64,000 nucleotides of DNA, taken from contig MU004181.1 in assembly GCA_010093605.1 (NCBI GenBank), forward strand, positions 1,798,001 to 1,862,000, read 5' to 3'. The stretch is from Lophium mytilinum (lineage: Eukaryota). The position numbers and the translations under genes are program-made. Below, in pieces: positions 46,370 through 48,157 of this stretch (position 1 is the first letter of the stretch; each line of letters begins with the position of its first letter). Below the pieces are notes generated by a model, which worked only from the letters and a program-made list of their open reading frames with translations, did not search any database and was not told the origin of the DNA.

Positions 46370-48157
46370 ATGTCTAATATTGCGCCATCAGCAGCGAGGC
46401 AGGCCCTCCGTGTCTGCTCACGGCGATACCCATCGAACTCGCTCTCCCGCTTCGCACACCGCGCCGCGGCCACTGGATGCCATGGACGAAGCTATGTCAC
46501 AGAGACGAAGCCGGTTAATGCCACCATCAACGTGGACACGACCATCAAGGCGGAACGGGAGGCCTTCATGAAGGAAACGGGGAGCAGCCCGGCCCGTGAG
46601 ATCATGCCCACCACTGGGCTCAGCGCGGACGTGATGATGAGTCCCACGGCAGGTATATTTTCTCCACCCTGGCTCGGTTAAGAATTGTCGGTAGCTAATC
46701 CAGCACAGGTATCTTGAAACAAGCAACTATCATGGACGAAGGCACTCGCCCTATTTATCTAGACATGCAAGCAACGACTCCGATGGACCCCCGAGTAGTC
46801 GATGCAATGCTGCCATACATGACGGGCATGTACGGCAATCCTCACTCGAGGACCCATGCGTACGGATGGGAGGTTGACAAGGCGATTGAGCAAGCACGAG
46901 AGCACATTGCTGGCCTCATTGGTGCCGACCCGAAAGAAATAATATTTACCAGTGGCGCAACGGAGAGCAACAACATGAGCATCAAAGGCCTGGTAAGATT
47001 CTTCATGCGAAATGGCAAGAAGAAGCACGTCATCACTTGCCAGACGGAGCACAAATGCGTTCTCGATAGTTGTCGCCATTTGCAGGACGACGGCATTGAC
47101 GTAACATACTTGCCCGTGCAGAGCAACGGTCTAGTCGACATGACACAGCTAGAAGCCGCGATACGACCAGATACCTGTCTGGTCAGCATAATGACCGTAA
47201 ACAACGAAATCGGCGTGGTCCAGCCCATTGACGAGATTGGGGCGCTTTGCCGGTCTAAGAAGGTCTTCTTCCACACGGATGCCGCACAAGCTGTCGGAAA
47301 GATTCCACTCGATGTGAACAAGTCGAAGATAGACCTGATGTCGATCTCCGGGCATAAGATATATGGACCTAAAGGTATTGGCGCATGCTATGTTCGCAGG
47401 AGACCACGAGTCAGACTCGATCCAATCATCAGTGGAGGTGGCCAAGAGCGCGGGCTGAGAAGCGGAACTTTAGCTCCGTCACTAGCCATTGGGTTCGGCG
47501 AGGCTGCTCGAATTTGCAAAGAAGAGATGGCAGTAAGTTCGACCATTCCGTTGCCCCTCAAATCCTATATGATTATTCGCTTTTACACATGCATGGCTTT
47601 CTGAGCGCCTGGATGCGAGCTACAATGGCCGTCTGGGCGCGATAATGTCACACAGCAAGACCTATGAACTGGAGATACTTTTCCTGGACGAAATAAATTC
47701 GAGAACATCGCAGTCAGACGCTGACTAGAACTAGTACGATACGAAACGTATTGCCGCGCTATCTAAGCGGCTCCTAAGCGGTCTTCTCTCTCTTGAACAT
47801 ACGAGTCTGAATGGAGATGCTACGCGCCATTATCCCGGCTGCGTTAATGTCTCATTCGCCTATGTCGAAGGAGAGTCGCTGCTCATGGCTTTGAAAGATA
47901 TTGCCCTTTCATCAGGAAGCGCATGTACATCAGCCTCGCTCGAGCCGAGCTATGTTCTGAGAGCCCTCGGAAGCAGTGATGAGAGCGCCCACAGTAGCAT
48001 TCGCTTTGGTATTGGCCGATTCACCACCGAGGCCGAGATCGACTATGTGCTCAAGGCTGTGAGCGAAAGAGTCAGCTTCTTGAGGGAGCTTAGCCCGCTA
48101 TGGGAATTGGTTCAGGAGGGTGTCGATCTCAACACCATTGAATGGAGCCAGCACTAG
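46370..48157 (+). CDS. NFS1: Mitochondrial cysteine desulfurase
   Basis: Presequence-like N-terminus, [13 protein letters not shown]-lysine motif [18 protein letters not shown]; introns ~46653-46708 and 47533-47734. Confidence 0.96.
47565..47640 (+). ncRNA. Candidate intronic box C/D snoRNA (guide for 18S rRNA 5' region)
   Basis: C-like ATGATTA 47569-47575; ACATGCATGGCTT 47587-47599 is the reverse complement of conserved 18S AAGCCAUGCAUGU; CTGA at 47601-47604. The 3' boundary and terminal D box are uncertain. Confidence 0.6.

Follow-up and report, generated by a model that had tools for sequence, protein, structure and literature searches.

A probable box C/D snoRNA in an NFS1 intron of Lophium mytilinum and its likely orthology with Nc CD4 of Neurospora crassa

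We analysed a 64,000-nt stretch of the Lophium mytilinum genome (contig MU004181.1, positions 1,798,001 to 1,862,000 of the forward strand), which is called the window here and in which positions are counted from its first letter. Judged from its sequence, an intron of the NFS1 gene in this window probably gives rise, through processing of the intron, to a functional box C/D small nucleolar RNA (snoRNA) some 105 nt long. This RNA would correspond to the snoRNA Nc CD4 of Neurospora crassa and would guide methylation of 18S ribosomal RNA (rRNA) at C49. Orthology of the two RNAs appears to be the most likely relation between them.

In the mechanism that we propose, the NFS1 pre-mRNA would be spliced, the lariat debranched and the intron trimmed by exonucleases back to the small nucleolar ribonucleoprotein (snoRNP). 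This particle, in which RNAs of the box C/D class are bound by fibrillarin, Nop56, Nop58 and Snu13, would assemble on a kink-turn in which box C at 47569 (AUGAUUA) meets box D at 47664 (AUGA), with a U:A pair replacing the G:C pair of stem II. The 13-nt element at 47587–47599, upstream of box D' (CUGA, 47601), would pair with positions 46–58 of 18S rRNA, and fibrillarin would 2'-O-methylate C49, the base that faces the guide at the fifth position upstream of D'.

Predicted features of the snoRNA and of its host intron. Coordinates are those of the window.
47533–47734, + strand: NFS1 host intron, 202 nt, phase 0, GTAAGT...TAG, as seen from the sequence, the flanking frames and spliced RNA contigs
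47563–47673, + strand: predicted box C/D snoRNA including a short terminal stem; the model match covers 47565–47667 and the ends are placed from the pairing of the flanks
47569–47575, + strand: box C, AUGAUUA, with U in place of the G at position 6 of the consensus RUGAUGA, a variant found in many orthologues
47587–47599, + strand: 13-nt element antisense to 18S AAGCCAUGCAUGU (yeast 46–58), from the sequence and the 18S text printed in PMC8044721
47601–47604, + strand: box D', CUGA; 18S C49 faces G47596, the base at the fifth upstream position
47605–47640, + strand: internal hairpin just 3' of D' (stem I of the C'/D' motif); RNAfold -20.7 kcal/mol, z -3.2 versus shuffles
47641–47649, + strand: degenerate box C' region (GAUAAUGUC), aligned with the YUGA-type C' of the orthologues, register uncertain
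47650–47663, + strand: region upstream of box D (ACACAGCAAGACCU), apparently a second guide that has diverged and has no conserved target
47664–47667, + strand: box D, AUGA, with A in place of the C at position 1 of the consensus CUGA; aligned with box D of all orthologues
47721–47725, + strand: putative branch site CTGAC, 53 nt past box D; conserved as CT[AG]A[CT] among the aligned introns

The flanking frames (...ICKEEMA before the intron) correspond to a cysteine desulfurase of the NFS1/IscS type. In assembled RNA contigs of the public runs X3, which is identical to the window, and X4, which comes from a close relative, position 47532 is joined to 47735 with GT..AG borders and 202 nt skipped. 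This joint shows that the intron is real and spliced, and it bears out, together with the sequence, the 202-nt intron at 47533–47734 given in a preliminary description of this DNA. The letters reported there were also all found in place, namely ATGATTA at 47569, ACATGCATGGCTT at 47587–47599, one T, CTGA at 47601–47604 and CTGG at 47633.

The 13-nt element is separated from D' by one spacer U, and the guide is in the standard register. The first C of AAGCC in the target is taken here to be position 49, a number that we counted on from the base-1 probe of a yeast 18S depletion set, assuming one base between the two probes. On this count the window would carry an antisense element of the kind expected in the class, at least 10 nt long and with its target base facing the fifth position before D'. 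The complement of the guide, AAGCCATGCATGT, is printed within the yeast 18S depletion probe 18S-4 (CAAAGATTAAGCCATGCATGTCTAAG...; PMC8044721). The 18-nt string made of guide and D' occurs once in the window, and when 2 mismatches were allowed, dinucleotide shuffles gave 0.04 matches to it, any match at all being seen in 3 of 100 shuffles.

Nc CD4 is described by Liu et al. (2009, BMC Genomics 10:515, PMC2780460) as an intronic RNA of 81 nt on chromosome V of N. crassa, detected by cDNA cloning and northern blotting. Its entry there gives 18S-Cm49 as the target, a match of 13/0 and a guide at D', and it is listed without homologue in S. pombe, S. cerevisiae, Arabidopsis and human. The preliminary description had predicted a target at about C49 of 18S rRNA for the D' guide, and this prediction gains from both sides: G47596 faces C49 in the window, and Nc CD4 has been published with the same target, match length and guide position (PMC2780460). 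Guide identity with the published and expressed Nc CD4 marks the window element as an unannotated member of a known family; on sequence grounds we regard it as a real gene of the published Nc CD4-type family, and not as a new one.

Conservation was evaluated in metagenome contigs, which were scanned with a degenerate eukaryote-type NFS1 motif situated about 100 nt downstream of the intron, so that the scan was blind to the intron content. At least 116 eukaryotic NFS1 loci were obtained, and all counts below are among the matches listed. When the two flanking exons were used in tblastn, both exon ends were placed in 68 of the at least 116 loci. No intron is present at the junction in 22 of these 68 loci, a gap of 32–72 nt is present in 14 and an intron of 175–227 nt in 32. 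The motif ATGCATGG was found at the same relative place in 24 of the 32 long introns. A MAFFT alignment of 29 distinct long introns, including that of the window, shows conservation only in box C, in the 13-nt element with D', in a TGA resembling C', in a block with [C/A]TGA at its end, and in the branch and splice sites; the remainder of the long introns is unalignable.

A sequence-only model (R1) was built from an alignment (A1) of 28 orthologous elements from which the window had been left out. Searched on both strands of the 64-kb window, R1 gave a single match, at 47565–47667 on the + strand (38.8 bits, E 2.5e-11). It also gave 41 matches in loci L001–L100 and 9 in L101–L116, all of them within the intron that immediately precedes the YDTKR exon, and 19 of the R1 matches are loci outside model training. 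No R1 match was detected in the DNA around any of the 36 loci with a short intron or no intron. The 50 matches and L046, a training member that scored below the cut-off, make up 51 loci with 45 distinct sequences in addition to the window, and a model-based alignment of these elements (A2) comprises 44 rows. Some close relatives of carriers have a short intron at the site (L003, L006, L017, L031, L038, L051, L054, L064, L073, L090, L108 and others) and some have none (L004, L018, L022, L061 and others).

The 18S guide is intact in 34 of the 45 parsed distinct sequences, while the nearest exon is just 76% identical in DNA. Beyond these 34, L045 has one mismatch, L105 keeps 10 of the 13 nt, and L110, which was not parsed, also carries the guide. 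Box D' of the 34 guide-bearing sequences reads CUGA in 20 cases, CAGA in 6, CCUA in 4, CUUA in 3 and CCAA in one. The preliminary description had named retention of the boxes and guide in orthologous introns as a test of its proposal. Both proved to be conserved, as seen in the long-intron alignment, in the R1 matches and in the number of intact guides. The pattern expected of the class, boxes and guide maintained while their surroundings drift, thus appears to be present at this site.

These data also bear on the idea that the intron is an ordinary long one with a chance resemblance to a snoRNA, or that it holds a cis-acting structure for splicing or regulation of NFS1 and not a trans-acting RNA. 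By our own uncomputed estimate a single 13-nt match to rRNA would be no rarity in 64 kb, and the element has no match in Rfam. The full pattern, however, is expected 0.04 times per window, and 50 of the at least 116 independent loci keep the element with its boxes and spacing, a degree of conservation that already contradicts this idea. The introns found at the same site also count against it: they measure 32–72 nt without the element and 175–227 nt with it, the splice sites being otherwise ordinary. We consider this explanation, in either form, extremely improbable.

A trans-acting box C/D snoRNA is further indicated by the way in which its two terminal boxes vary. Position 6 of box C faces position 1 of box D as the stem II pair of the kink-turn. 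At these positions (47574 and 47664 in the window, columns 14 and 158 of A2), G:C is found in 19 of the 44 rows, U:A in 15 and U.C in 6, the 4 others being gapped, and G with A is not found in any of the 44. In terms of whole boxes, UGAUGA is combined with CUGA 19 times, UGAUUA with AUGA 15 times, UGAUUA with CUGA 6 times and UGAUGA with AUGA never. The four gapped rows (L083, L098, L105 and L110), read by eye, provide four further U:A pairs. The covariation score of the two columns is 0.217 versus 0.111 ± 0.015 in shuffles, none of 500 reaching that value, and every slid control scores below it. An independent-pairs test of the G:C/U:A change found 1 usable pair on the supported branches of the exon tree, which is poorly resolved. 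Boxes, stem II and tandem sheared G.A pairs of the C/D kink-turn are described in PMC8413462. Such a kink-turn would be preserved in the window, where UGAUUA seems to be offset by AUGA as a U:A pair.

Two statements of the preliminary description are revised here. It had seen no perfect terminal CTGA at a typical distance; we find the terminal box D as AUGA at 47664–47667, 67 nt from the 3' splice site. It had also suggested that the RNA could be atypical or decaying, which, as regards the 18S guide, we do not retain: UGAUUA/AUGA is a compensated pair shared by 15 of the 44 aligned sequences. The clean natural covariation of this kink-turn pair, which is usually G:C, has some value for specialists and explains why consensus scanners that require CUGA would miss genes of this type.

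In the window the elements follow each other in the order C, guide, D', hairpin, C', guide, D. The terminal stem is formed by T47563-C47564-C47565 with G47671-G47672-A47673 and is closed by T47568:A47668 (duplex -3.1 kcal/mol). It is weak but typical for the class: its pairing is equalled by 13.6% of non-cognate flank pairs, and over 43 sequences cognate flanks pair better than non-cognate ones (mean -1.74 versus -0.64 kcal/mol, p 8e-4). For the internal structure, spacers were folded one at a time and named pairs were counted on the alignment. RNAalifold applied to the MAFFT alignment yielded no consensus structure, the hairpin region being length-variable and misaligned there. A helix begins at most 3 nt past D' in 32 of 36 guide-bearing orthologues as compared with 48% of shuffles, its sequence varies by lineage, and the internal hairpin of the window is the most stable of the set. 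The CTGG noted earlier at 47633 sits within this hairpin and is not a box.

Box D of the window ends 67 nt ahead of the 3' splice site, as compared with 54–80 nt in 28 orthologues, and the distance from the 5' splice site to the start of box C is 36 nt in the window and 25–54 nt in the orthologues. These values fit the distance constraint of intron-processed snoRNAs that is discussed by Liu et al. (PMC2780460). From box C to box D there are 99 nt in the window and 78–81 nt in many orthologues.

Several points weigh against our interpretation and have to be set beside this evidence. The window gave no match at the gathering thresholds of Rfam release 15. The element is absent from 36 of the 68 junction-covering loci, and at least 9 changes in its presence were counted on a tree of 420 nt of exon whose resolution is poor, with stars on 13 of its 57 inner branches; at the NFS1 site it would be dispensable in many fungi, or it would have moved elsewhere. 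In the window, boxes C and D are both off consensus, and the core of box C' is UGU versus UGA in the orthologues. The match of guide and target was scored on the yeast 18S text, which may differ from the 18S rRNA of the host. The RNA contigs of all four runs compared are spliced and none of them spans the intron, so that they bear on splicing and not on a small RNA. A measured methyl at 18S C49 was not found among the best-ranked literature on Cm49/C49, in which only the N. crassa paper concerns 18S rRNA; the text of that paper gives C49 as a predicted target and mentions primer-extension mapping only for other sites (PMC2780460). Finally, the case for orthology with Nc CD4 is built on function and position as given in that paper, not on an alignment or a named host gene, the host gene of Nc CD4 not being named in its main text.

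One consequence concerns the link with the host. The preliminary description had proposed that rRNA modification is coupled to NFS1 transcription. This stands only as the generic result of an intronic location; since the element is missing from more than half of the junction-covering loci and its presence changed repeatedly, a functional coupling to NFS1 is not obligatory.

The off-consensus boxes could also be those of a decaying snoRNA pseudogene, in which the guide survives and RNP assembly is gone. The forms UGAUUA for box C, AUGA for box D and UGU instead of UGA for C' agree with such a decay, as does the divergence of the second guide from the GCAGGGGU seen in 23 of the 45 relatives. The first two forms, however, occur together in 15 of the 44 aligned sequences as a compensated U:A pair, the uncompensated G with A being absent, and the GA dinucleotides of both boxes, which make up the tandem GA of the kink-turn, are intact in the window. 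The guide matches at 13 of 13 positions, D' is a perfect CUGA, no hairpin of the set is more stable, and the spacing to the 3' splice site has been kept. Taken together, these features make a pseudogene quite unlikely.

Another explanation accepts a real snoRNP but gives it the role of a chaperone, which would assist folding or processing by pairing with the 5' domain of 18S rRNA and would not methylate C49. It would account for the 8 of 34 guide-bearing sequences in which D' is without its GA dinucleotide (CCUA, CUUA, CCAA) while the guide is invariant, and no measured C49 methyl was found in the best-ranked searchable literature. Degenerate D' and C' boxes are nevertheless common in snoRNAs with verified methylation sites; in yeast, consensus C'/D' motifs are reported for 2 of 43 snoRNAs only, although their methylation sites have been verified (PMC8413462). 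The guide also ends exactly one nucleotide ahead of D', in the standard register for methylation, and the element has been lost many times on the poorly resolved tree (the at least 9 presence changes given above), unlike an essential processing factor. A chaperone without methylation is, in our view, unlikely, and we favour a functional snoRNA that directs methylation of C49.

Many relatives of the window element carry a second guide. In 23 of the 45 distinct sequences, GCAGGGGU[U/A] stands directly upstream of box D (for example L035:1733-1833, L009:2199-2300 on the minus strand, L048:1730-1842 and L066:779-891 on the minus strand); it is not present in the window. The U6 sequence CCCCUGC, complementary to GCAGGGGU[U/A], is printed for yeast (PMC3177201) and C. 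elegans (bioRxiv 10.1101/2023.09.16.558044). The D-side guide would put the third C of the U6 CCCC at the fifth position upstream of box D, the complementarity having been assessed over a 7-nt core and on U6 texts of other organisms than the host. This third C is presumably C62 in human U6 numbering, the target of SNORD94. Upstream of box D in the window no U6 Cm62-type element is found; the sequence reads ACAGCAAGACCU and the D-side guide has diverged (GCAAGACCU). The lineage of the window would thus have lost the second guide, and its RNA would have one guide only, in keeping with the entry for Nc CD4.

Ten of the 23 sequences with GCAGGGGU[U/A] lack the 18S guide and have canonical UGAUGA/CUGA boxes. 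On account of these ten, the U6-type guide, lost from the D side of the window element, is probably the more ancient of the two. A tentative history can be drawn from this, which we put forward as a possibility with less than even chances. An old fungal U6 guide, directed at the third C of CCCCUGC (the human SNORD94 site), would have been joined in one lineage by the D' guide for 18S C49, and several sub-lineages, including that of the window, would later have lost the U6 guide. In the same scheme the series G:C, U.C, U:A at stem II would reflect a position at which pairing, rather than the identity of the bases, is under constraint. A widely conserved D-side guide that fits U6 and was lost in the window lineage is of some value to specialists.

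One further short complementarity was noted within the element.
47579–47581, + strand: conserved GCU past box C, complementary to AGC at 47654–47656, which lies at the 5' border of the D-side guide, and a possible inner helix (A2 columns 21–24 with 147–150)
The middle pair of this complementarity is GC in 27 sequences of A2, AU in 4 and GU in 2. A:U replaces G:C in L020, L059, L091 and L102, and G.U is seen in L042 and L033. If formed, the helix would mask part of the D-side guide.

Searches for known families gave little. In E-value mode, Rfam returned nothing inside the intron of the window, and for two orthologues it returned generic C/D matches only (9–18 bits, E 0.5–10). Twenty orthologous loci produced a tRNA only. 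The Rfam comparison, which the preliminary description had proposed as a check, therefore gave no family match: the snoRNA is missing from Rfam but its family is published. No 18S-C49 guide is present in the A. fumigatus snoRNA list. A study of the fungal snoRNAome confirmed as conserved 10 of 16 target predictions that had been made on single N. crassa sequences, and its main text names neither CD4 nor a U6 target at the D-side position (PMC5824354).

Two other observations were made near NFS1. Within an NFS1 exon, UGAUGA...CUGA occurs on the antisense strand (47403–47436, minus strand) and was matched by the Rfam families sR14 (16.2 bits, E 0.05) and SNORD15 (15.6 bits); these scores lie far under the gathering values and the matches are most likely due to chance. 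On a metagenomic fungal contig, about 1 kb separates NFS1 from a tRNA gene (L033:1140-1234, minus strand, 47.6 bits) whose anticodon arm region carries a 26-nt insert.

The biology suggested here is ordinary, a lineage-specific guide for rRNA methylation already reported in N. crassa. Motif-spotting on the bare sequence in the preliminary description led to a real gene, one that would escape standard annotation and for which Rfam 15 has no model, and the 45 distinct metagenomic sequences with that of the window could seed one.

Among known systems, human SNORD94 (U94, the guide for U6 Cm62) resembles the family through the D-side GCAGGGGU[U/A] of 23 of the 45 orthologues, a feature not shared by the window, and Rfam searches revealed no sequence similarity between SNORD94 and the family. 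The generic intronic box C/D guides, such as yeast U18, U24 and snR38, are closer in their architecture: they have in common with the window RNA the order C-D'-C'-D, the rule of the fifth nucleotide upstream of D', a short terminal stem, the presence of one snoRNA per intron, and a box D situated about 60–75 nt from the 3' splice site. They differ in stem II, which is U:A and not G:C in the window and 14 other aligned sequences, and in the host, which in the window is the gene of a mitochondrial Fe-S enzyme and not a translation-related gene. The nearest known system is Nc CD4 as it is described by Liu et al. (PMC2780460). Its listed length is 81 nt; in the window the distance between boxes C and D, both included, is 99 nt, because the internal hairpin there is longer, and in this comparison the window has UGAUUA/AUGA boxes. 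Both RNAs are intron-encoded single guides, with the D' guide, the perfect 13-nt match and the predicted 18S-Cm49 target in common.

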